Positions 7,356-22,580 of a stretch of 45,808 nucleotides of DNA are shown in pieces. A program made the position numbers and the translations under genes. The stretch is taken from the IMG/VR virus record IMGVR_UViG_3300040801_001654, positions 1 through 45,808 of that record; one strand, 5' to 3'. The stretch comes from a virus. Position 1 is the stretch's first letter; the number at the start of each line of letters is the position of its first letter. The notes below the pieces were generated by a model, which saw nothing but the letters and a program-made list of their open reading frames with translations, made no database searches and was not told the DNA's origin.

Positions 7356-7385
7356 TTGACAAGAACCTATAGTGTGTGGTATACT
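7356..7385 (+). promoter_or_regulatory. sigma70-type promoter TTGACA-N18-TATACT with CTATAG in the spacer
   Basis: TTGACA 7356-7361, TATACT 7380-7385, CCTATAGT at 7366-7373. Confidence 0.55.
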
Positions 7386-7413
7386 CTATGTATTAAATTC
7401 ATATTATATACAA

Positions 7414-7893
7414 ATGAGTAAAAGAAATAAGAAGGGGCAGTTTGTTAGGACAAACGGCTCCACAAAAAGAAAGAGGGTACAGTATAAGGGCTCCCATATG
7501 CACAGGTATCAAAGAAAGTTCTGTGAAGAGTTAAAGATTAATAAAATTCCAAAAGGCTTTGTGGTTCATCACATAGATGGAGACCCAACAAATGATGACA
7601 TAGAAAATCTTGCTCTTATGACCCATACAGCACATAATAATATACACCCTAAGGACAGACCTATATGGAATAAGGGATTAACAGTAGAAACTAGTGATAA
7701 GTGGAGAAAGACAATTGAAAAGGCACAGGAGAGTAGAGAGGAACACTTCTTCCCACTCTTTAGGGAGACATTCCTTCTTAGAAAAGGAGGTATGACTCTA
7801 CAACAGATAGCTGACGAGCAGGGTATCTCTCGTAGACAGGTATCTGACAGATTAAATAGATACCACGAACTAAAAGAAAAATATGAGAACTAA
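7414..7893 (+). CDS. Free-standing HNH endonuclease with C-terminal HTH (homing-endonuclease type)
   Basis: HHIDGDPTNDDIENLALMTHTAHNNIH is an HNH motif. C-terminal GMTLQQIADEQGISRRQVSDRL is an HTH. ATG 7414 chosen because the track start 7372 lies inside the promoter. Confidence 0.75.
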   Translation: MSKRNKKGQFVRTNGSTKRKRVQYKGSHMHRYQRKFCEELKINKIPKGFVVHHIDGDPTNDDIENLALMTHTAHNNIHPKDRPIWNKGLTVETSDKWRKTIEKAQESREEHFFPLFRETFLLRKGGMTLQQIADEQGISRRQVSDRLNRYHELKEKYEN

Positions 7894-8083: not shown

Positions 8084-8332
8084 TCAGATTGGTACTGTAT
8101 CGTTTCCATACATTTGATGGTGTTCTCTGTGGCATTCAGCACACAATAATACAGTATTCTCTGGTGAGTTAGTACCACCTCGGCACTTGTTTAGTATATG
8201 GTGTACTTCAAGACGATTATGTTTCGTCTCTGTCCTTCCACACAAGTGGCAACGGTGGTTGTAACGTTCGTGAACCCTCTTCTTCCATCCCTTCTTGTCT
8301 CGCTTCTTGCGTCGCTTCGACACCGTGTTCAC
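8084..8332 (-). CDS. HNH endonuclease
   Basis: CHLCG...EVHHI...GGTN...LLCAECH signature. GTG start lies directly after an in-frame TAG. Confidence 0.7.
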   Translation of the reverse strand: MNTVSKRRKKRDKKGWKKRVHERYNHRCHLCGRTETKHNRLEVHHILNKCRGGTNSPENTVLLCAECHREHHQMYGNDTVPI

Positions 8333-9625: not shown

Positions 9626-10111
9626 TTACGTTCCACTTACATTGGCTCTTATAGAGTTGTCTACTAAGGACTTAACCTTGGTCTGTGAGAAAGATATAAG
9701 TCTTTCACAGTCCTTATATAAATCATTTAGTAATCTACTCTCATACCTAGCCTGTAACTCCTTCTTCTTTAACTCATCACACTCCTTCTCTGCCAATTCC
9801 CCTGCCATTTTATCTGTCATCTTCTCCCCACTCTGCTTTAACTCTAGGTACTTATCCCTTACCGACATATCATACTCCTCTTTACTAGCCTCAGATACTA
9901 GAATAGCAAAGTCTTTTAAGTCGGACAGGTTGTCCATTATCTTAGCAAGTGTGAATATGTGGTCGACTAGACTATCCATATCCCACTCATTAACTGGTCG
10001 TTCCTCTATCCTACGTTTTATTTCAAAGATTTTATTAAGAGTTTCGTTAGTCTCTTTCTCTTCCTCCCACTCTAGGTTGGCGTCAATAGAGAACTCCTTT
10101 GCCTTAATCAT
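9626..10111 (-). CDS. Acidic coiled-coil protein, function unknown
   Basis: 161-aa ORF co-directional with the operon. The antisense 205-aa ORF is Ser/Leu-rich and looks like an artefact. Confidence 0.65.
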   Translation of the reverse strand: MIKAKEFSIDANLEWEEEKETNETLNKIFEIKRRIEERPVNEWDMDSLVDHIFTLAKIMDNLSDLKDFAILVSEASKEEYDMSVRDKYLELKQSGEKMTDKMAGELAEKECDELKKKELQARYESRLLNDLYKDCERLISFSQTKVKSLVDNSIRANVSGT

Positions 10112-10406
10112 ATCTCTTCTTGTTTATTTTATATATTCCACTGTGTAGTCCTATCTTCTCTGCCTCGGCTGGGTTATTCTCTACCCACCTGTGACACTCA
10201 CTACATAGCCACACTGTATCCTCCTCCGTACCACCTGTACTCCTCTTGACCACGTGGTGGCTCTCTAATTGGATGTTGGGATAGGTGTCATTCCTTCCAC
10301 ACCTAGCACACTCCCTCTCCCACAGCCCAAAGAGTCCAGACTGTTCTTTCTTCTCCCTCTTTACAGTCTTGTTTATCGTCACTTCCTGTTTTAATTTGCT
10401 TATCAT
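10104..10406 (-). CDS. HNH endonuclease
   Basis: CARCG...LESHHVV...GGTEE...WLCSECHRWVENN. Confidence 0.7.
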   Translation of the reverse strand: MISKLKQEVTINKTVKREKKEQSGLFGLWERECARCGRNDTYPNIQLESHHVVKRSTGGTEEDTVWLCSECHRWVENNPAEAEKIGLHSGIYKINKKRYD

Positions 10407-13043: not shown

Positions 13044-13946
13044 CTAGAAGTTTATAGACGTTTCGGTCTTAAACTCAAAGTCATAATTTAATTCGTTCAA
13101 CTCTCTGTGTTTCCATACATAATGTCTTGCCTTAGTATCCTCTGGTATATTCATATGTCTGGTTTCGTTTGTCATAAGTAACCAATCGAAGTACTCAGCG
13201 TACCTCTCTGCTGTGTATCCCTCTAAGCGTGGCGAAGTATTAACCTCACACACTACTGCTTTTGGCAGACTAGAGTTCAATGGGTCAGCCATTATATCCA
13301 CAGCACCGAAGTCCATGCCCAGCACCTCGATTGTTTTAACAGCAAGGTCTACTATATCCTTCCTGTATTGTTTCCAAGGTATTACCTCAAACGCATAGCC
13401 ATTGTCATGACTCCAGTTCTCTCCACGTGTCTCAGAAGTTTGGACTTTCTGTTGGACTATGAGAACCTTGCCATGACCAACGTGTACTCTATACTCGGTA
13501 GTCTTTGGATAGAACCTTGAGAAGTAAGGGTTCTCCATACTGGTAACCTTACCCCTATTACTCAAGAGTTCTGTTATATTATTAAAGAGCAAAAAGTCCT
13601 TACCTTTCTGATGAAAGGCAGGTCTTACCACAATGGGAAAATCAGTAGCACAAATAGTACCGACTGGTTCTGGGGTGGGTATTCCCCTTTCATATAGGTA
13701 TTCCCTACACCTTTTCTTATTACTCACAAGCCTTATCTTCTCAGCCCTGTTGTATTCTATAACTGGGTTGGTATCTATACTGGTAGTACAACCCCACCTA
13801 ATTATAATCCTACTATCAGGGTCTGGTTCATTGTTAAACCTATGCCTACTTAGTCTATACCAAGCAGGTTCTAAACCATTCTTCATCTTACTGAGTAGTT
13901 CTTCTATTGAACTCCTACTTGTTGTTTTAGTTATTACTGTATTCAT
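13044..13946 (-). CDS. ATP-grasp ligase (RimK-like)
   Basis: FPIVVRPAFHQKGKDFLLF, TEYRVHVGHGKVL and DFGAVDIM...VVCEVNTSP match the ATP-grasp/RimK pattern. Confidence 0.75.
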   Translation of the reverse strand: MNTVITKTTSRSSIEELLSKMKNGLEPAWYRLSRHRFNNEPDPDSRIIIRWGCTTSIDTNPVIEYNRAEKIRLVSNKKRCREYLYERGIPTPEPVGTICATDFPIVVRPAFHQKGKDFLLFNNITELLSNRGKVTSMENPYFSRFYPKTTEYRVHVGHGKVLIVQQKVQTSETRGENWSHDNGYAFEVIPWKQYRKDIVDLAVKTIEVLGMDFGAVDIMADPLNSSLPKAVVCEVNTSPRLEGYTAERYAEYFDWLLMTNETRHMNIPEDTKARHYVWKHRELNELNYDFEFKTETSINF

Positions 13947-13947
13947 A

Positions 13948-15726
13948 TTATTCCTCCACTAAGTTAGCAAAATACCCATAATCTCTCACACCTATCGGTG
14001 CTAGGGTATTATATATTCCTCCCACACTTCTCTCTTTCTGTTGTTCTGCTATAGCCAAGGCTTTCCTCTCGAACACCTTGTCCTTATCAATCTTTATCTT
14101 TGGTACAGTTATAGTCCTTCTAACTTTCTTTCCCTCTATTATCAGAGCATCTCTATCTAAGTAGTTAGCGAAGTCTATAAATCCCTTAGCCCTTTCCTTA
14201 ATTTTGTCTTTACTTATTCTCTCATTGAGTAGTTTGTATAACTTACTGTCTTCATTTAACAATTCCTCTCCCACTTTTATTATATCAGTCTGTTTGTTCT
14301 TGAGTATATATTCTAGTATCCTAGTTCTGAATAGTAATTGTTTCTTATTCTTAACAGCAGGAAATATCCTAAACTCTAGGGTGTTCCTAGTTATATTCAA
14401 CGCCTGTCTATGACCACTATCTATATAACAATCCTTCTCCTTAGCCTCACAGTATTCGTTCATAGCCCTGTCTGGGTACAAACTATATAGTAGTGGAAGA
14501 TACCCTCTTATATCTAAGAGTATCTCATGTGGTGTCCTCTCTGTGTCTGATATATGTATATGACCACCACACCTCTCACTTACCTGAGCCTCTAAGAGCG
14601 ATTCTAAGGGTGTTAAAATATCCTCGAGGATATCTATATCCAATGGTAACACTGGACTTACCAGTTCAAATCCTGACTCATCTAATGAGCCATCTCTTTC
14701 TGCTACCCACCCTGTATTCTTAAGTAATGACCTATTAACTATCTTTCTCCTTGCTGTAACATCTTCTTTCTCTACTTCATAACCTATCTTATACCTACTG
14801 TTATCACTCATATCTTGTCTGCCTATACCAGCGTGGTATTCTAAGATACCCCTTATATTACTGCACCTAGGACACACAAGTTCGTATTCATTTTCAAGTG
14901 TAGTACCACAACCCCTACAGCGTGGTCTACTATTACACTCCTTACATACATTTCTCCCACCCACACTCACTATATCATCTATCAATGTCATCTTACCACA
15001 GTTAGAACACTCCACATACTTATGCCTACACAATGGACATATAGTTTTCGAACCTAGTATAACCTCATCACAACCCTGACACTTCTTATCTACAAGTTCA
15101 TCACCTAGTAATTCTTTTAGTATATCGTACACCTTTTTATCTATTGATATACTCTTACCGAAGAACCTTGAATAAGCCCATGCGTAGTGGTCTTTGTTTC
15201 GGTTAGTCATTGACTTCCCCTCTCCCATTAACGCTGGTATTATTAAGGTATCCCTTTCAGCACAAGAGTATTCATCACCATTTATCACTGCCTCAAGCCA
15301 ATAGTATTCCTCATCATCAAAATCATTTATATCATTTCTTAAAGCAATCCTACTATCATACTCTGCCAACCTCTCGGTTATCCTCTCCACTGCTAGTTCT
15401 AACGGATTACTACCTGAGATATAGAACCTACTTGCCACACCCCAGTACACGAACTTCGTATTCCCTCCTATAGTTAGTATCTCTGTATCAAGTTCTTCTA
15501 CTCTTGATATCAAGGTGTCCACTCCTAACTGTTCGTGTTTAACCTTATCCTTATACAAGTTTACGAACTCTATATATATATCTGAGGTTGAGGTGTTATC
15601 AGCCAAGTACATATTAACCCTACGAATATCCTCCACTATAGGTAGCACTACGACCTTAGCATAATGGTCTAAGAGTTTACCAGCCACCTCATCTTTAAAC
15701 TCCTGACTTAACTTCTCGTACTCCAT
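13948..15726 (-). CDS. Amidoligase paralogue 2: N-terminal domain of unknown function plus three zinc ribbons plus a GS-like amidoligase domain
   Basis: CQGC..CPLC / CSNCG..CKEC / CRGCG..CPRC, then YKIGYEVEKED, ERDGSLDESGFELVSPVLPL, CGGHIHIS, LEFRIFPAV. Confidence 0.7.
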   Translation of the reverse strand: MEYEKLSQEFKDEVAGKLLDHYAKVVVLPIVEDIRRVNMYLADNTSTSDIYIEFVNLYKDKVKHEQLGVDTLISRVEELDTEILTIGGNTKFVYWGVASRFYISGSNPLELAVERITERLAEYDSRIALRNDINDFDDEEYYWLEAVINGDEYSCAERDTLIIPALMGEGKSMTNRNKDHYAWAYSRFFGKSISIDKKVYDILKELLGDELVDKKCQGCDEVILGSKTICPLCRHKYVECSNCGKMTLIDDIVSVGGRNVCKECNSRPRCRGCGTTLENEYELVCPRCSNIRGILEYHAGIGRQDMSDNSRYKIGYEVEKEDVTARRKIVNRSLLKNTGWVAERDGSLDESGFELVSPVLPLDIDILEDILTPLESLLEAQVSERCGGHIHISDTERTPHEILLDIRGYLPLLYSLYPDRAMNEYCEAKEKDCYIDSGHRQALNITRNTLEFRIFPAVKNKKQLLFRTRILEYILKNKQTDIIKVGEELLNEDSKLYKLLNERISKDKIKERAKGFIDFANYLDRDALIIEGKKVRRTITVPKIKIDKDKVFERKALAIAEQQKERSVGGIYNTLAPIGVRDYGYFANLVEE

Positions 15727-15747
15727 AACTTTAAGATTATAATTTAA

Positions 15748-16785
15748 CTAACTCGGTAGGTAGAACTTGAGTATGCTCTCAAACTTAGCCCACTTACCAC
15801 TATTTATATCAACTTGTTTACCCTCTACTATCAAATCATTTACCTCATTTAATTCATCTAAACAGTTAAAGCATAACGGATAACCCCACTGGGTTATACC
15901 AGCATCTTCCTCAACCTCGTCTATTTCACAGCCACACCCCTCGCAGAATATATCCTTATTATTCTCATATAGTTTCTGATAACTAGACCACGGATATTCC
16001 TCCTCATACTTATCCTCCCAACTATCATCTTCAAAATCACTGTAGTAAGAGGGATACCTCTGCTTGTAGCAATTACTTTTAACAAGTGTTGTATCTTTCT
16101 TATACTTTATCTCCTTAGGTTCTCCTATCATCTTGCCTTTCATATCTAACACCACCAGTGTATCGTTTGTGAATTCAAATGGTTCTTCCTCTGAATTGTA
16201 GTGTCCAGCCACAAACTCCAGCACATCTTTCATTGAACTGAACATTATCATACCCAACTTTTCCATTGTTAAACAATACAGTGGATTATCATGCCTACTC
16301 ACATATATTCTATCTTCGTTCTTATCCCACGCTATAAAGTTAGCACTGCCCTTAATTTCTTTTAGCATATCCCAATTCTTTTCCTGAACTATCGGTATAA
16401 GTACCTCACTATCCACCTCATACTCATAGTCTAACTTCTTAGCAATCTCCTTATGATTGCTTATCACACCATTATGAACTAAAAAGGTATCCTTTCTATT
16501 TAATGGGTGTGCGTTGCGTTCATTTACCTCTCCAGTTGTAGCCAATCTAGTATGACCAAGCCACAAATCACCCTCAACTTGTCTGAACTTCTTTCTCTTT
16601 AAGAACTGACTTGCTGGTATGGTATCCTTGAACAGAGAATGGGTTTCGCTATCCTTATCAACTACCAGCACACCAGTACTATCCCTACCTCTGCTTTCAT
16701 TTGCTAATACTAAGGACTTGAATATCCTCTTAGCAACTTCTCGGTTTTCTGGTTTAACATTTAACATACCTGCTATTCCACACAT
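15748..16785 (-). CDS. Class-II (Ntn) glutamine amidotransferase with a C-terminal zinc ribbon
   Basis: MCGIAGML supplies the Cys1 nucleophile. Also RGRDSTG, GHTRLATTG..NERNAHP, LVHNGVISN. C-terminal CEGCGC...CFNC. Confidence 0.85.
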   Translation of the reverse strand: MCGIAGMLNVKPENREVAKRIFKSLVLANESRGRDSTGVLVVDKDSETHSLFKDTIPASQFLKRKKFRQVEGDLWLGHTRLATTGEVNERNAHPLNRKDTFLVHNGVISNHKEIAKKLDYEYEVDSEVLIPIVQEKNWDMLKEIKGSANFIAWDKNEDRIYVSRHDNPLYCLTMEKLGMIMFSSMKDVLEFVAGHYNSEEEPFEFTNDTLVVLDMKGKMIGEPKEIKYKKDTTLVKSNCYKQRYPSYYSDFEDDSWEDKYEEEYPWSSYQKLYENNKDIFCEGCGCEIDEVEEDAGITQWGYPLCFNCLDELNEVNDLIVEGKQVDINSGKWAKFESILKFYLPS

Positions 16786-16808
16786 ATTTGTTTAGTCCTC
16801 AGTTTAAT

Positions 16809-17999
16809 TTATTTATTTAGTATTTCTTCAACCTCATCAGGTCTTATCTCTAGCATAATATCATCTATATCCCTAGCGTATCTGACTATGTTAGAATAGA
16901 ACTCCTTGTAGGTTATGTTGTAAGTATCAAGATGTGTCTTAACAATCTTTCTTAACCTATCACTATCACTCAATTCTTGTAATCCCTGTTCAACTGTTGT
17001 AGCCTTGTGTGATAACATATACTTGAGTAATCTAAATCTATTCATCAAGTCCTCCTTATCTCTAGGTGGGTCAAATATCCTGAACTCCAATCCACTGCCC
17101 TGATAACTTCCCCTCTTACTAAGGGCGTATCTTCCAGCCTGTTTATATATATTCTTATTCTTAGGTTCGCAATAATGGTTCGCTGTTCTTTTAGGAAACA
17201 GAGCATATATCATTGGTAAATACCCAGCCATATCATCTATAAGTTCGTCAGGCGTTCTGTACTTGTCTGACACTGTCATATGACCACCACAGTTATCTGA
17301 ATAACTTGTGTTTATCAGTTGGTTCAGCAACCCCTTGCTAAACAGTTCATCTAAATACCCTATCTTTAAGGGGTATATAGGACTAACAGCCTCAAATCCC
17401 CAATCATAATCTAACGAGGCATCTTCCTCCATAACCCAGCCAGTTTTATCTAATAAGTCATACTTATCCACCTCATCTTTAAAATACTCATCTTCTCTCT
17501 CCAGTTCAACCCCTACAGCATATCTATAACCCCCTGTAAGATTATCCCTACCCTTACCACTATGATAACTAAATGTATTATTGCTTTTATCATGTTCGTT
17601 GTAACAATCTTCACAGTAAGTACAATCATCTCTCTCAGAATAACATAAGTTATCAATATGCGTAGTCCAGCCACAATCTTCACAACTACCATAACTATCA
17701 CAATAGCAATCTTCACACACCCTATCATCTTCACTATCAATGTAATATGTGCAATCCGTTTGAACCCACTCATCACAATGAAAGCATTGAGTATAGTGTT
17801 TATTTAAACAGTTATCACATACATATCCACCATTGTCAACATATGTCATATCATCAGTTAAGTGATATTCTCCACACTCCAGACACTTGCTAACACACTC
17901 ATCACAAAATTGTTCACCATCAATTTCTATAAAGGTTATGTTTATATTGCTATCAAAGACCCCACCACAATTAACGCACTCTAGTTTTATGTCTTTCAT
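16809..17999 (-). CDS. Amidoligase paralogue 1: four tandem zinc ribbons plus a GS-like amidoligase domain
   Basis: Four CxxC(G)-N17-25-CxxC units in aa 1-135, then YAVGVELEREDE, EEDASLDYDWGFEAVSPIYPL, CGGHMTVS, GLEFRIFDPP. Confidence 0.7.
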   Translation of the reverse strand: MKDIKLECVNCGGVFDSNINITFIEIDGEQFCDECVSKCLECGEYHLTDDMTYVDNGGYVCDNCLNKHYTQCFHCDEWVQTDCTYYIDSEDDRVCEDCYCDSYGSCEDCGWTTHIDNLCYSERDDCTYCEDCYNEHDKSNNTFSYHSGKGRDNLTGGYRYAVGVELEREDEYFKDEVDKYDLLDKTGWVMEEDASLDYDWGFEAVSPIYPLKIGYLDELFSKGLLNQLINTSYSDNCGGHMTVSDKYRTPDELIDDMAGYLPMIYALFPKRTANHYCEPKNKNIYKQAGRYALSKRGSYQGSGLEFRIFDPPRDKEDLMNRFRLLKYMLSHKATTVEQGLQELSDSDRLRKIVKTHLDTYNITYKEFYSNIVRYARDIDDIMLEIRPDEVEEILNK

Positions 18000-19592: not shown

Positions 19593-19622
19593 TTGTTATA
19601 GGTCTAGTTGCTCTGGTATAAT
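19593..19622 (+). promoter_or_regulatory. Orphan rightward promoter TTGTTA-N18-(TGg)TATAAT facing an ORF-free stretch
   Basis: TTGTTA 19593-19598. Extended -10 TGgTATAAT 19614-19622. Back to back with the leftward promoter at 19556-19584. Confidence 0.4.
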
Positions 19623-19796
19623 ATAATGATAATATAGCCTTGTAAAAAGTAAATTGAATATACAAGAATAATATTATAGGCTCATGTTTTCAAGTATATC
19701 ACCAGTTTAAAAGACTTTTAGCATAGAGTACACTATAGGCTAGTAGTTATTTTCGCCAATCACCCCTGCTCACTATAGGTCTATATACATAATAAT

Positions 19797-19863
19797 ACCC
19801 TATAGTAATACTACTCATACCAGAGATTGAAAGTTTTACTATGGGTCGTTTGGGGTTACCCCT
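19797..19863 (+). repeat. Copy A of a ~67-nt tripartite unit CCTATAGTAA..GAGATTGAAA..GGGGTT
   Basis: cCCTATAGTAAtactactcataccaGAGATTGAAAgttttactatgggtcgtttGGGGTTacccc. Followed by TTATTTTT. Confidence 0.5.
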
Positions 19864-19907
19864 TATTTTTGCCTATAGTAAAGCACTATCACCCTATTAT
19901 ATAATGT

Positions 19908-19975
19908 ATCCTATAGTAAAGGGGGGGTACGACACCGAGATTGAAATTTCCCAGGGGGGCGGGGTTCCACCCTGT
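19908..19975 (+). repeat. Copy B of the tripartite unit
   Basis: tCCTATAGTAAagggggggtacgacaccGAGATTGAAAtttcccaggggggcGGGGTTccaccc. Confidence 0.5.
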
Positions 19976-19998
19976 TAATACGGGACAATTGGCACCTA

Positions 19999-20013
19999 TG
20001 TACGCACACTATG
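19999..20013. promoter_or_regulatory. Operator-like direct repeat TGTACGCACA(c)TATGG, copy 1 (copy 2 at 20051-20065 lies inside the RHH promoter spacer)
   Basis: The two copies are 52 nt apart, and copy 2 fills the spacer of the promoter at 20043-20071. Confidence 0.4.
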
Positions 20014-20042
20014 GGGTAAAAGTTATATAGGGCGAGTAGGTA

Positions 20043-20099: not shown

Positions 20100-20297
20100 A
20101 TGAAGGAGAGCAGGGTACATTTGCGCACAGAGCCTACAGTAAAGAGGTTGTGGGAGAGGGAGGCTGAGAAGCGTCATTTAACGTTGAGTGAGTTTATACA
20201 CGAGGCTGTGAGGGAGTATATAGAGTTTGGTAATGTAAGGGTGAAGAAGGAGGCAGTGGGGAATGCGCCAAAAAAGCACGTAACCTATTTTAAGTAG
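20100..20297 (+). CDS. Ribbon-helix-helix (CopG/Arc/ParD-like) DNA-binding protein
   Basis: SRVHLRTEP (beta strand) - TVKRLWEREAEKRH (helix) - LTLSEFIHEAVREYI (helix). It is the only rightward gene inside the leftward arm. Confidence 0.6.
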   Translation: MKESRVHLRTEPTVKRLWEREAEKRHLTLSEFIHEAVREYIEFGNVRVKKEAVGNAPKKHVTYFK

Positions 20298-20456: not shown

Positions 20457-20594
20457 TTATTTACGACTTTTAAACGCCACCACAGGAATCATTAGGATGA
20501 CTATGGTAAACACTAGCAGTCCCCACGAGAAGTCTGTTTGGGCTCCCCCCAGGGTAGCGTAGTAGTGTTGTCGTTCTGCTTGGTAGGTAGTCAT
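20457..20594 (-). CDS. Possible 45-aa single-TM peptide coupled to the exonuclease gene
   Basis: ATG overlaps the exonuclease stop (TAATG). TM segment WGLLVFTIVILMIPVVAF. Confidence 0.35.
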   Translation of the reverse strand: MTTYQAERQHYYATLGGAQTDFSWGLLVFTIVILMIPVVAFKSRK

Positions 20595-21361
20595 TAGCCT
20601 CTTGAATCCATATAATTTAAATCAGGATTACGGTATATCTTGCGCCCTTTAGTCCACCCTCCGCAATCCAGGCATTGGTATCGTTTACGTTTACCTGTCT
20701 TAGTAGCGTAGAATCCTCCTTTACGCAGGTTGTGAGACCCACACTTAGGGCAGCATTCAGGCTGGTCGTCTATTACGGCTAGACTTGGGTGATTACTCAT
20801 CCACGGTCTTAGCTCGTAGTAGAGGTCTTCTAGTGCTTCAACGTCTGCTTTACAATAGTCTTTCATATGGTCCCAGTCTTTTCTAACTCCATTAAGGCAT
20901 CCTTTAATAACTTCTATGCCTCCCATATCTTCTTTTAAGCGAAGGTCCATAGTCTTACAAAGGTGCTTAAGGCTGTTAGAAGAGAACCCAGCGACTCTAC
21001 GAGCCACTTTAAGGGTGTCTACTGTAGAGCTAGGCTTAGGTGGTTCCATTTTATGGTACATCATTCTAGCGTGCGCCTTTTTAATATCATATCTATCTCC
21101 ATTATGGGCTACCAGTATGTCTGCTTCATTGAATAGTTCGTGTAGTTTCTCCACTACGTGTATATCGTTATTAACTCCTGGTTCCCAGTCCTCAAAATCA
21201 TCCTGTCCTATAACGTGGGGTATCTTAGCGTCCGCCCACTTGTATGCGAAGCATAGTATCTGCCAGTCTTCCACTACATCTATAGCGTCTGACTTCCACA
21301 ATCTCCAGTTGTAGCTGATTATAGGGCTTATCTCAATATCAAAGAATAGTATTTTAGCCAT
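20594..21361 (-). CDS. RNase H-fold 3'-5' exonuclease (DnaQ/PolB-exo-like) with a C-terminal zinc ribbon
   Basis: Start moved to MAKILFFDIEISP (ExoI DxE). HNGDRYD is ExoII-like and YCKADVEAL is ExoIII-like. C-terminal CPKCG...CLDCG. Confidence 0.7.
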   Translation of the reverse strand: MAKILFFDIEISPIISYNWRLWKSDAIDVVEDWQILCFAYKWADAKIPHVIGQDDFEDWEPGVNNDIHVVEKLHELFNEADILVAHNGDRYDIKKAHARMMYHKMEPPKPSSTVDTLKVARRVAGFSSNSLKHLCKTMDLRLKEDMGGIEVIKGCLNGVRKDWDHMKDYCKADVEALEDLYYELRPWMSNHPSLAVIDDQPECCPKCGSHNLRKGGFYATKTGKRKRYQCLDCGGWTKGRKIYRNPDLNYMDSRG

Positions 21362-21602
21362 TATTTTGTTCCTGTAAGAGTTTAATAAACTCCTTAGCGT
21401 CTTTAATCCTCTCAAATACCATAGGGTGTTCATTCCACCTTTCTGACACCACCACTCTTTCTTCCACACGCTTATTAAACAGACCACCAACAACTATGTT
21501 TTCTATAACGGCTGGCCTGTAATGCTCTACCTTATAGCCCCAACTATCAAAAACCCAGTTCCTCTTACTAAGGGGCACTTTTTTAATTCTCCAATCTTTC
21601 AT
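21354..21602 (-). CDS. Hypothetical protein
   Basis: 82-aa ORF. Its stop overlaps the next ATG (ATGGCTAA). Confidence 0.55.
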   Translation of the reverse strand: MKDWRIKKVPLSKRNWVFDSWGYKVEHYRPAVIENIVVGGLFNKRVEERVVVSERWNEHPMVFERIKDAKEFIKLLQEQNNG

Positions 21603-21628
21603 AACAATCCTTTTAAAAGTTAAATCCG

Positions 21629-21701
21629 TGGAGACGGGAGGAGTTGAACCTCCGTTTAAGCCGTTCGGTATAAAGCCCTGGCTTACTTACCCGTCGTCCC
21701 C
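21629..21701 (-). ncRNA. 73-nt tRNA-like domain: 7-bp acceptor stem with G3:U70 and a canonical T-arm; D and anticodon arms are degenerate
   Basis: Minus strand reads GGGGACG-N41-GGAGG-UUCAACU-CCUCC-CGUCUCC-A. All 7 acceptor pairs form, including G3:U70. The length is exactly tRNA-sized. The best anticodon-arm fold has only 4 of 5 pairs (loop AUACCGA). Confidence 0.5.
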
Positions 21702-21994
21702 GCTCTAGAGAGGGACCCGAACACTTTCCGTGTGTCTGTGCCTCTAGGGCTAATCTCTTTGACTAGGGCTTGCATCATTTTACGTCGCTATGAAACGCCT
21801 CGTAAGAGGAACATCGCCTACGACGGAGCACGTCTTTACCCTTGGTCCCTCACTGGAACGGGGGCTATTCCCCACGGTTCCATTTATTCAGCTCCCTTCT
21901 AAGTCTCCACTTTCTTAGTACAGGGAGGTTTTTTAAGAACGTTCTACCCAAGAGCATTTCCTCAAACTCTAACAGGTAGGTGGAGTCCATCCAG
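21629..21994 (-). ncRNA. GC-rich structured noncoding RNA of about 366 nt, ending in a tRNA-like domain (tmRNA-like or novel)
   Basis: No ORF on either strand in an otherwise tightly packed operon. GC is visibly higher than in the flanks. Several strong helices are present: GGAAC(C)G(U)GGGG/CCCCCGUUCC at 21855-21881 and the long-range GAGGGACC/GGUCCCUC between 21844-21851 and 21710-21717. The 3' end has a T-arm and acceptor stem. Confidence 0.55.
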
Positions 21995-22363
21995 CTACTC
22001 ACTAGCTTCTTCTGTTGTTTCCTCTTCCTCTTCTTCATTTTCTTGGGGCGTAATATCTATAAGTATTTCTTTCACATCTAAACCCTTTATCTTCTTAATA
22101 GCTTCACTTATATCCTTATCAATTTCCTTCTGCTTTTCTTTCAAGACTTTAATAAGTCTTCTCTTGGCTGGTCCTGCGGTTTTAAACATATCCTCTTGAG
22201 AAACCCCATAGGACTGACCTGTCTGGTAAACTATTTTAACCTCATCTTCTATTGTAGTAACAACTATGCCTGTTACTTCGGCTTTGATTACCTGTGCATT
22301 TCTTAAGTCTGCTGAAGGGTAATACACTATATCTCCCAGATTAAACTTGTTTGTTATTTTCAC
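21995..22363 (-). CDS. Hypothetical protein with an acidic tail
   Basis: 122-aa ORF with a GTG start. C-terminal sequence ENEEEEEETTEEASE. Confidence 0.55.
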   Translation of the reverse strand: MKITNKFNLGDIVYYPSADLRNAQVIKAEVTGIVVTTIEDEVKIVYQTGQSYGVSQEDMFKTAGPAKRRLIKVLKEKQKEIDKDISEAIKKIKGLDVKEILIDITPQENEEEEEETTEEASE

Positions 22364-22551: not shown

Positions 22552-22580
22552 ATTCTACCATATCTATAACTAAATGTCAA
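22552..22580 (-). promoter_or_regulatory. sigma70-type promoter TTGACA-N17-TAGAAT
   Basis: Minus strand reads cctatagtaataaacacTTGACAtttagttatagatatggTAGAAT. A CTATAG lies 10 nt upstream of the -35 box. Confidence 0.55.

Follow-up and report, generated by a model that had tools for sequence, protein, structure and literature searches.

A putative RNA cassette in a phage replication operon joins a conserved structured RNA and its small protein gene to a tRNA-like domain with an alanine identity pair

Introduction

Alanyl-tRNA synthetase (AlaRS) recognises its substrates by the G3:U70 pair of the acceptor stem and ignores the anticodon. In jakobid mitochondria, transfer-messenger RNA (tmRNA) is naturally reduced to an alanine-accepting tRNA-like domain without a tag template, and SmpB is encoded in the nucleus. 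Among the structured RNAs of phages, GOLLD and ROOL adjoin phage tRNAs. Full-length tmRNA genes occur in some phages (mycobacteriophage cluster C; a marine methylophage, PMC9004378), and manA RNAs self-assemble into cages (bioRxiv 10.64898/2026.07.01.735769). Here we describe a region of IMG/VR virus record IMGVR_UViG_3300040801_001654 that carries a tRNA-like domain (TLD) of 73 nucleotides (nt) and, before it on the minus strand, a second structured RNA that we call the core. The window, meaning the whole stretch of 45,808 nt analysed, is by its looks a complete or near-complete phage genome, and both RNAs lie in its replication operon.

An initial annotation had proposed that positions 21629-21994 encode a single noncoding RNA of about 366 nt, free of open reading frames (ORFs), with a large 5' extension and an alanine-type tRNA-sized domain at its 3' end. 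Our comparison with relatives partly confirms that observation and partly supports its interpretation. The terminal element is exactly as annotated, with its acceptor stem, T arm and G3:U70, and the segment is indeed rich in GC (0.49 against 0.35-0.42 in the flanks). The stretch is neither free of ORFs nor one RNA, however: its 5' third (about 130 nt) is filled by a gene, ORF57, whose protein is conserved in all relatives, and the core and the TLD can be separated by inserts or, in one relative, by loss of the TLD. We read the region as a cassette of stable RNAs in an early or replication operon. Taken together with the mechanism discussed below, this is the account we prefer, with a confidence that falls a little short of even.

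Results

A tRNA-like domain with a conserved alanine identity set

Relatives were found in three ways: with an exonuclease protein query, with conserved DNA patterns, and with the families of ORF57 and of the 122-amino-acid (aa) protein encoded before it. This yielded about 16 distinct sequence variants, which all belong to one phage clade and were assembled from metagenomes or read archives (records from JGI, ENA and Logan, one labelled activated sludge; individual loci carry L numbers below). On the minus strand the TLD (21701-21629) reads GGGGACG-ACGGGUAAG-UAAGCC-(17 nt)-GGCUUA-AAC-GGAGG-UUCAACU-CCUCC-CGUCUCC-A. A linker of 8-9 nt with a conserved GG (9 nt in the window) replaces the D arm. 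Across 15 variants 95% of alignment cells pair and 15 of the 17 pairs covary. The acceptor and T arms are 98-100% paired, with the T stem at 100% and all five of its pairs covarying. Acceptor pairs 1:72, 4:69, 5:68, 6:67 and 7:66 change by compensation, whilst G2:C71 and G3:U70 are the sole invariant pairs of the TLD. The AlaRS identity set is thereby present as G3:U70 in 15/15 variants, G2:C71 in 15/15 and A73 in 14/15, in agreement with the alanine type first annotated. Judged by this pattern of change, the TLD is truly a tRNA-like RNA, and its mark of alanine identity is conserved.

In the middle arm, a stem of 3-6 base pairs (bp) covaries. At one extreme the arm has 5 bp and a loop of 6 nt, at the other 6 bp and a loop of 18 nt; a GNRA tetraloop (GUAA or GAAA) is a frequent cap. 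In L058 the whole element is 59 nt long and the middle loop 6 nt. Such a variable, often GNRA-capped arm indicates that the TLD has no anticodon. ARAGORN found no tRNA or tmRNA anywhere in the window, nor at the TLD site in relatives, so, together with the shape of the middle arm, the TLD is not an ordinary tRNA that had been overlooked. An encoded CCA is missing from the TLD and also from most canonical tRNAs of the related phages (tRNA-Ala in L056, L058 and L059; tRNA-Met in L043 and L058), the tRNA-Met of L002 being the exception.

The middle loop of the window (21665-21680) contains CU-UUA-UA and that of L001 CU-CUA-UA, the only difference between the two middle loops. Both look like the anticodon loops of nonsense suppressors; other variants differ, and the likeness is probably a coincidence.

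This likeness, and the resemblance of the 3' half of the TLD to Firmicute tmRNA, would suit a missed ordinary or suppressor tRNA, or an integration remnant or attachment site at a host ssrA or tRNA gene. We find all of these scarcely credible. An attP copy would hold the 3' end of a gene, whereas both acceptor strands are present here and covary; the element lies in mid-operon, and no integrase was found among the window proteins scanned. The loop is not conserved, several variants having a stem capped by GNRA or a loop of just 6 nt, and the long late-gene ORFs show no stop-codon recoding.

The Rfam tmRNA model (RF00023) matches 21626-21701 with 32.8 bits, below its threshold of 47 (E = 2e-11 in a permissive search of 801 nt). 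It aligns only the ends of the TLD (5' acceptor, T arm and 3' acceptor), with 326 model positions falling on 36 nt. A second variant scored 35.4 bits, again sub-threshold. The tmRNA_permuted model gave 13-14 bits, and matches to the mitochondrial tmRNA model, if any, scored below bacterial tmRNA and were suppressed. Position 8 is A in 14/15 variants, and A-C directly precedes the T arm in 15/15, with a purine before it in 12. A8 and the R-A-C next to the T arm are features of tmRNA more than of tRNA. The acceptor stem is presumably that of Bacillus subtilis tmRNA.

A covariance model built from the first eight variants (R1) recovered the TLD at the expected place in seven unseen loci (29.8-78.3 bits), gave a single match in the window and found nothing in distant exonuclease relatives. 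This recovery and the E value of the tmRNA match put the element far beyond chance. The kinship with tmRNA raised by the initial annotation holds to the extent that the TLD, through the ends aligned by Rfam, comes closest to the tRNA-like domain of tmRNA; it does not make the TLD a tmRNA. The element has no tag template and stays sub-threshold for tmRNA, and without D and anticodon arms it is not a tRNA-Ala either. Its design appears to be that of the tmRNA tRNA-like domain with helix P2 shortened and capped.

A structured core with a covarying pseudoknot

The core is enclosed by a long closing helix and holds a pseudoknot between a junction and a hairpin loop (Table 1). Covariance model R2 scored 126-186 bits in 15 loci, one of them unused in building the model. 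In the model-guided alignment of 15 variants, which is fitted to R2 itself, pairing extends to 95.9% of cells and compensatory change to 24 of 43 pairs; an unfitted MAFFT alignment gave 91.7% and 21 of 39. None of 500 shuffles reached the observed values, and slid partners paired at 32-45%. The minimum free energy of the whole 379 nt was unremarkable (z = -1.5). Near-identical blocks of 10 to 20 nt recur in all variants (AGACGUGCUCCGUCGUAGGC; UUCAUAGCGACGU; AAGCCCUAG.CAAAGAGAUUAGCCCU; GAC.CACGGAAAG), and the junction sequences between the helices are long and invariant. Many pairs in the helices of both RNAs are G:U, which on the opposite strand would be A·C. This frequency of G:U assigns the structure to the minus-strand transcript.

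Pseudoknot pairing is kept without exception: CGUG/CACG in 11 variants, CAUG/CAUG in three (L051, L056 and L058) and CAUC/GAUG in one (L067). The three CAUG variants are unlike each other in P1, in P4 and in the TLD, and we do not think that they form a clade, a view taken without a tree. L067 supplies the second covarying pseudoknot pair and the sole covarying pair of P3. The 8-bp long-range pair GAGGGACC/GGUCCCUC noted in the initial annotation is present, and it covaries in relatives. By eye, the TLD loop showed no consistent complementarity to the variable parts of the core.

Scanning the whole window against Rfam 15 gave no match to any family at gathering thresholds. Permissive searches of the core returned noise only (T-box, 12.6 bits; Tymo_tRNA-like, 15.4 bits; CRISPR-DR37, 16.2 bits). 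Four candidates for the core were rejected because no Rfam model of them matched: Y RNA-like (YrlA) RNA, T-box, plant-virus tRNA-like structure and phi29 pRNA. Comparative evidence thus gives good support to the core as a new, previously undescribed structured RNA family with a dedicated small protein.

Could the core hold the tag template of a degenerate, permuted or split tmRNA? The tmRNA-like ends of the TLD and a long closing helix that recalls tmRNA helix P2 would fit, as would the ORF57 stop codon in a hairpin loop, the setting of the tag stop in tmRNA helix 5. Three-frame translation, however, revealed no conserved reading frame through the core, where no frame escapes the shifts caused by 1-2-nt indels in P4 and J2/3, and the end of ORF57 does not resemble a degradation tag. 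Only 36-41 nt separate the acceptor strands, ARAGORN was negative with permuted forms included, the tmRNA_permuted score was low, and in L002 an excisable tRNA separates core and TLD. The lack of a conserved frame excludes the reduced or rearranged tmRNA of the initial annotation as a carrier of a tag template, and we regard this reading as very improbable and effectively refuted.

A cis-regulatory role of the core for the downstream replication genes, either as a riboswitch aptamer or in processive antitermination with ORF57 as an N-like protein, has more in its favour. The operon around the core is long and read in one direction, and a strong promoter-like site precedes the core by about 700 nt. 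Its closing helix, multi-helix junction, pseudoknot and invariant junction nucleotides are those of riboswitch aptamers. A possible alternative hairpin, GACG/CGUC, read from the sequence, would compete with P3, and ORF57 is basic and rich in Arg and Trp. On this account the TLD would be incidental. What follows P1, however, is no conserved terminator or platform for sequestering a ribosome-binding site. Instead it is the TLD, a tRNA, a manA-like RNA or an AT-rich spacer, depending on the relative. The downstream gene differs between relatives, and terminator-like sites downstream are few. We consider cis-regulation unlikely, albeit worth keeping in mind.

The cassette is modular

In most variants 0-14 nt separate core and TLD; in the window the gap from P1 to the TLD is 0-5 nt. 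Between core and TLD, L002 and L058 have a canonical tRNA-Met (L002:760-834; L058:3155-3226). The CCA of the L002 tRNA ends at 834 and TLD position 1 is 835, leaving no gap, and in L058 the spacer is 1 nt. In L051 (1394-1510) and L056 (3175-3322) a structured element of about 150-170 nt occupies the same place. It aligns over its full length with manA RNA (RF01745) at 23.5 and 25.5 bits, below the threshold of 55.2 for membership, and shares the motif GUGNCUGAAUAA...UAAGG with that family. This insert is likely a distant manA relative, outside marine cyanophages. L067, the most divergent ORF57 locus, has a core (126 bits; L067:360-532) but lacks a TLD: an AT-rich spacer follows the core directly, and then comes the exonuclease gene.

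In every locus with an ORF57 homologue and recovered downstream DNA, the core is present, its invariant GAC lying 30-49 nt after the stop codon. Across these sequences the invariant unit is ORF57 plus core, and the TLD is a frequent but separable companion. The site behaves as a slot for tRNA-shaped and other structured RNAs.

Such a slot invites the view that the TLD is punctuation only, that is, a handle for RNase P or RNase Z and a protector of 3' ends, whose alanine mark was inherited from a tRNA-Ala or tmRNA and is unused. The TLD is dispensable in L067, its slot also takes a real tRNA-Met, in L002 it directly abuts the CCA end of that tRNA, and its middle arm is free to vary. RNase P has no need of G3:U70, however, yet all 15 variants keep it and G2:C71 whilst every other acceptor pair covaries. 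Were the wobble neutral, we would expect drift to G:C or A:U, as happens to G:U pairs in P1 and P4 of the core. Punctuation alone therefore seems to us a minority possibility.

Canonical tRNA-Ala(UGC) or tRNA-Met genes also lie on the opposite strand just past the exonuclease gene in four relatives (L043:4225-4297(-), L056:4756-4828(-), L058:4486-4556(-) and L059:4273-4344(-)); the window carries no such tRNA gene.

The TLD might instead serve as a decoy or sponge, diverting some host factor whose target or substrate is the acceptor end of tRNA-Ala or of tmRNA (acceptor-stem tRNases of defence or toxin systems, RNase R or aminoacyl-tRNA-dependent transferases) and protecting host tRNA-Ala or phage translation. 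Conservation of an acceptor identity with no decoding function would suit this. So would the canonical tRNA-Ala(UGC) or tRNA-Met carried nearby by several relatives, since phages facing tRNA-cleaving defences are known to supplement tRNAs. No candidate target is known in these uncultured hosts, however, and the same evidence fits competition with SmpB and tmRNA equally well. The acceptor sequence is variable outside pairs 2 and 3, making a decoy for a sequence-specific nuclease unlikely. We rate the decoy as improbable; it and a new RNA class, both raised in the initial annotation, are still candidate readings.

ORF57 and the 122-aa protein

Protein-level conservation shows ORF57 to be a protein-coding gene: the protein is conserved in 14 variants with many synonymous changes. 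The consensus of its C-terminal domain is W-x-DS-x-YLL-x-FE..LL.K..LLKNLP..R.WRL.R...KWNRE. RNA structure is not conserved inside the coding part (alifold -2.4 kcal/mol, with covariation as a penalty). The nested hairpin annotated at 21888-21925 lies inside ORF57 and is not conserved as RNA. The hairpin annotated beside it, P0, is present and encloses the stop codon of the gene (21865-21867) in its loop. Most variants have a hairpin of different sequence at this position, again with the stop codon in or at the loop.

The ORF57 family is tiny, with about seven small homologues in a profile search of 1.84 billion representative proteins. NCBIfam returned nothing for ORF57; the Pfam and PHROGs scans covered its neighbours. 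AlphaFold 2 modelled two helices at low confidence (predicted local distance difference test, pLDDT, 65).

In every variant ORF57 starts in the +1 frame within the GAA/GAG-rich codons for the acidic tail of the 122-aa protein (21995-22038). This frame overlap gives ORF57 a Lys/Arg-rich N-terminus. Its ATG has no good Shine-Dalgarno sequence upstream. A +1 frameshift fusion of ORF57 with the 122-aa protein is possible. The 122-aa protein, which forms 23 protein clusters, had no match in Pfam, PHROG or NCBIfam.

Distribution and genome context

All relatives share the order DnaB, small ORF, 122-aa gene, ORF57, RNA, (small ORF), exonuclease. Among 50,697 GenBank phages, BLAST found no match to the region. 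In GTDB genomes the exact patterns occurred by chance only, within coding DNA (L038-L042), and looser pattern scans of IMG/VR gave 14 chance matches (L012-L025). Further IMG/VR scans returned only 3-4 contigs, all known already. The distant exonuclease relatives L004-L007 have neither core nor TLD. With about 16 variants in one clade the family is rare, limiting its immediate reach.

The operon of the window runs on the minus strand through a DnaD-like loader, the DnaB helicase, a 59-aa ORF, the 122-aa gene, ORF57, the RNA region, an 82-aa ORF and the exonuclease subunit of a DNA polymerase, the conserved downstream neighbour of the RNAs. The promoter-like site in Table 1 is the nearest upstream of the block formed by the 59-aa ORF, the 122-aa ORF, ORF57 and the RNAs. 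A cluster of GATase, amidoligase and ATP-grasp genes lies farther downstream on the same strand, and terminase, portal and lysis genes occupy the plus strand. The phage looks virulent. Its host is probably a Firmicute, given extended -10 promoters of Firmicute type, an XhlA-like lysis protein and the Firmicute-like tmRNA acceptor sequence.

Table 1. Positions of the RNA elements, genes and promoter-like site of the locus in the window.
Feature	Position	Strand	Description	Evidence
TLD	21629..21701	-	73 nt	Rfam tmRNA, sub-threshold; model R1, 83.7 bits; covariation
TLD acceptor stem	21695-21701 / 21630-21636	-	7 bp; G3:U70 = 21699:21632	
TLD discriminator A73	21629	-	CCA not encoded	
TLD T arm	21649-21653 / loop 21642-21648 / 21637-21641	-		sequence
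TLD middle hairpin		-	UAAGCC/GGCUUA, 17-nt loop; AAC linker, then T arm	sequence
Core RNA	21707..21854	-	about 150 nt, closed by P1	model R2; covariation
P1	21844-21854 / 21707-21717	-	closing helix, 10-17 bp in variants	11/13 pairs covary
P2	GGGU 21838-21841 / GCCC 21747-21750	-		no variation, hence unproven
P3	21820-21825 / 21783-21788	-		one pair varies, C:G to U:A in L067; weakly tested
P4	about 21794-21813	-	variable hairpin	5/7 pairs covary
P5	21774-21777 / 21760-21763	-		2/4 pairs covary
P6	21738-21741 / 21721-21724	-		3/5 pairs covary
Pseudoknot 5' strand	21829..21832	-	CGUG in junction J2/3, pairs with P6 loop	covariation
Pseudoknot 3' strand	21729..21732	-	CACG in 11-nt P6 loop GACACACGGAA	covariation
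P0 hairpin	21855..21881	-	GGAACCGUGGGG-AAUAG-CCCCCGUUCC; encloses ORF57 stop codon	partial RNAalifold support
ORF57	21865..22038	-	small basic protein, 57 aa	protein-level conservation
122-aa protein	21995..22363	-	acidic C-terminal tail; directly upstream of ORF57 in all relatives	synteny
Sigma-70-like promoter	22552..22580	-	TTGACA-17-TAGAAT, extended TG	consensus scan, 11/12 positions; consensus match only
Variable small ORF	21354..21602	-	82 aa; other small ORFs or none in relatives; outside conserved unit	
DNA polymerase 3'-5' exonuclease subunit	20594..21493	-		phrog_403, E = 1e-77; Pfam RNase_H_2

Other features of the window were recorded in passing. In the intergenic stretch 19600-20030 a motif, (T)TTACTATAGG / CCTATAGTG, occurs at least five times; it resembles the promoter core of single-subunit (T7-type) RNA polymerases; origin repeats are an alternative. 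No polymerase of that type was identified among the window proteins scanned. The minus-strand cluster at 13044-17999 comprises a RimK-like ATP-grasp ligase (13044-13946), an Amidoligase_2-like protein of 592 aa (13948-15726), a class-II glutamine amidotransferase (15748-16785) and an unknown protein of 396 aa (16809-17999). It resembles the phage amidoligase/ATP-grasp peptide-modification clusters of Iyer and Aravind. A 65-aa ORF on the plus strand (20100-20297), inside the minus-strand operon, has weak similarity to ribbon-helix-helix or TacA-like antitoxins and produces a local reversal of GC skew. Three HNH endonuclease genes are present (7372-7893 on the plus strand; 8084-8332 and 10104-10406 on the minus strand).

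Discussion

In the account we prefer, host RNase P would cut the operon transcript just where the TLD begins, and likewise at inserted tRNAs. The core so freed would end, on its 3' side, at the base of P1, and in L002 the cut at the TLD would in addition give the adjoining tRNA-Met its CCA terminus. A host enzyme would add CCA to the TLD, and AlaRS would then charge it with alanine. The alanyl-TLD has no anticodon and would not decode; it may engage SmpB and EF-Tu, and so either compete with host tmRNA or serve as a rescue factor without a tag. The core would act as a folded RNA with ORF57, forming a small ribonucleoprotein.

The steps of this account differ in what argues for them. The TLD is probably alanine-charged and tmRNA-like. 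We expect it to be CCA-tailed and alanylated because G3:U70 is its most conserved pair whilst its neighbours covary, a pattern that recognition by RNase P leaves unexplained. Competition for SmpB, or tag-less rescue, is the most specific proposal, because an alanylated, anticodon-less RNA of tmRNA shape would reach the ribosome only with SmpB. The core most likely works as a folded RNA with ORF57, as suggested by its fixed short distance after a dedicated gene for a basic protein, its invariant junctions and its pseudoknot. A functional link between the two RNAs would be speculation; the core might, for instance, act on the TLD or influence how it is charged.

Several observations weigh against this account. 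The Rfam tmRNA scores of the TLD are below threshold, and one variant fits the tRNA model, at 21 bits, better than the tmRNA model. The D-loop substitute is 9 nt long, 5 nt shorter than the roughly 14 nt of tmRNA. L064 has U73, two variants are mismatched at 6:67 or 7:66, six of the 15 have A1:U72, and T-loop position 55 is G or C in some; these deviations could lower charging or the binding of EF-Tu or SmpB. The phage proteins scanned include no SmpB-like, AlaRS-like or other translation-related protein, and ORF57 has no recognisable RNA-binding fold by NCBIfam, profile search or AlphaFold 2. L067 indicates that the TLD is not essential to the ORF57/core unit. The variants form one narrow clade, so shared ancestry inflates the covariation counts, and the recurrence of pseudoknot, acceptor and T-stem changes in dissimilar backgrounds was judged by eye, without a tree. 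Every functional step, from expression and processing to charging and binding, is one that we infer from sequence.

The boldest form of our proposal is that ORF57 and the core represent a new class of phage ribonucleoprotein or ribozyme, and that the TLD is the first phage-encoded 'tag-less tmRNA', using or blocking SmpB-dependent rescue in the host. We hold this to be conceivable but doubtful. RNAs with long invariant junctions, a pseudoknot and a peripheral variable hairpin have in many cases turned out to be ribozymes, sensors of ligands or scaffolds for ribonucleoproteins. Should the TLD prove to be charged and to bind SmpB, a virus would be making a minimal tmRNA of its own, a counterpart in nature to the engineered TLD constructs of structural work, and a handle on how phages meet ribosome rescue. 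The interchangeable slot, which takes a tRNA-Met, a manA-like RNA or the TLD, bears on the question of why GOLLD, ROOL and manA RNAs adjoin tRNAs.

Our literature search on phage tmRNA-like or tRNA-like alanine elements found nothing comparable; a paper on AcrIIIA1 and t(m)RNA fragments concerns host RNA fragments and not a phage gene, and was set aside as irrelevant. Amongst described systems, the TLD is most like the tRNA-like domain of tmRNA (RF00023), including the truncated constructs co-crystallised with SmpB. Shared features are a GGGG-type 5' end (9/15 variants), G3:U70 in all, A73 and A8 in 14/15 each, an unpaired D-loop substitute that keeps GG, and R-A-C before a T arm of UUCRAnU type. 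In both, the anticodon is absent and the helix in place of the anticodon stem is capped. By contrast with tmRNA, the phage element has no mRNA-like domain, tag frame or pseudoknots PK1-PK4, has 36-41 nt between its acceptor strands, encodes no CCA, carries A1:U72 in 6/15 variants, and is sub-threshold in Rfam and uncalled by ARAGORN. The mitochondrial tmRNA of jakobids fits in architecture, as a tmRNA-type tRNA-like domain with no tag template, but is an organellar gene rather than part of a phage cassette with another RNA, and common descent with it would be conjecture. Full tmRNAs borne by phages are also trans-translation elements carried by a virus; they have tag templates and are found by standard tools, whereas here there is a tRNA-like domain only.

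Processing handles of tRNA shape offer a second comparison. In MALAT1-mascRNA, mitochondrial tRNA punctuation and the stable RNAs of the T4 tRNA cluster, a tRNA shape lies 3' of another RNA, and as with the TLD it would recruit RNase P and so set the 3' end of that RNA. Unlike these handles, which are not known to conserve an aminoacylation identity element, the phage TLD has G3:U70 as its most conserved pair. For the core, the nearest parallels are GOLLD, ROOL and manA, which are phage-borne, highly structured, have invariant junctions and stand beside tRNA or tRNA-like genes; a manA-like RNA even occurs within the same cassette in two relatives. The core nonetheless matches none of the three in sequence or structure. 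It is smaller than GOLLD and ROOL and, unlike all three, is always preceded by a dedicated small protein gene.

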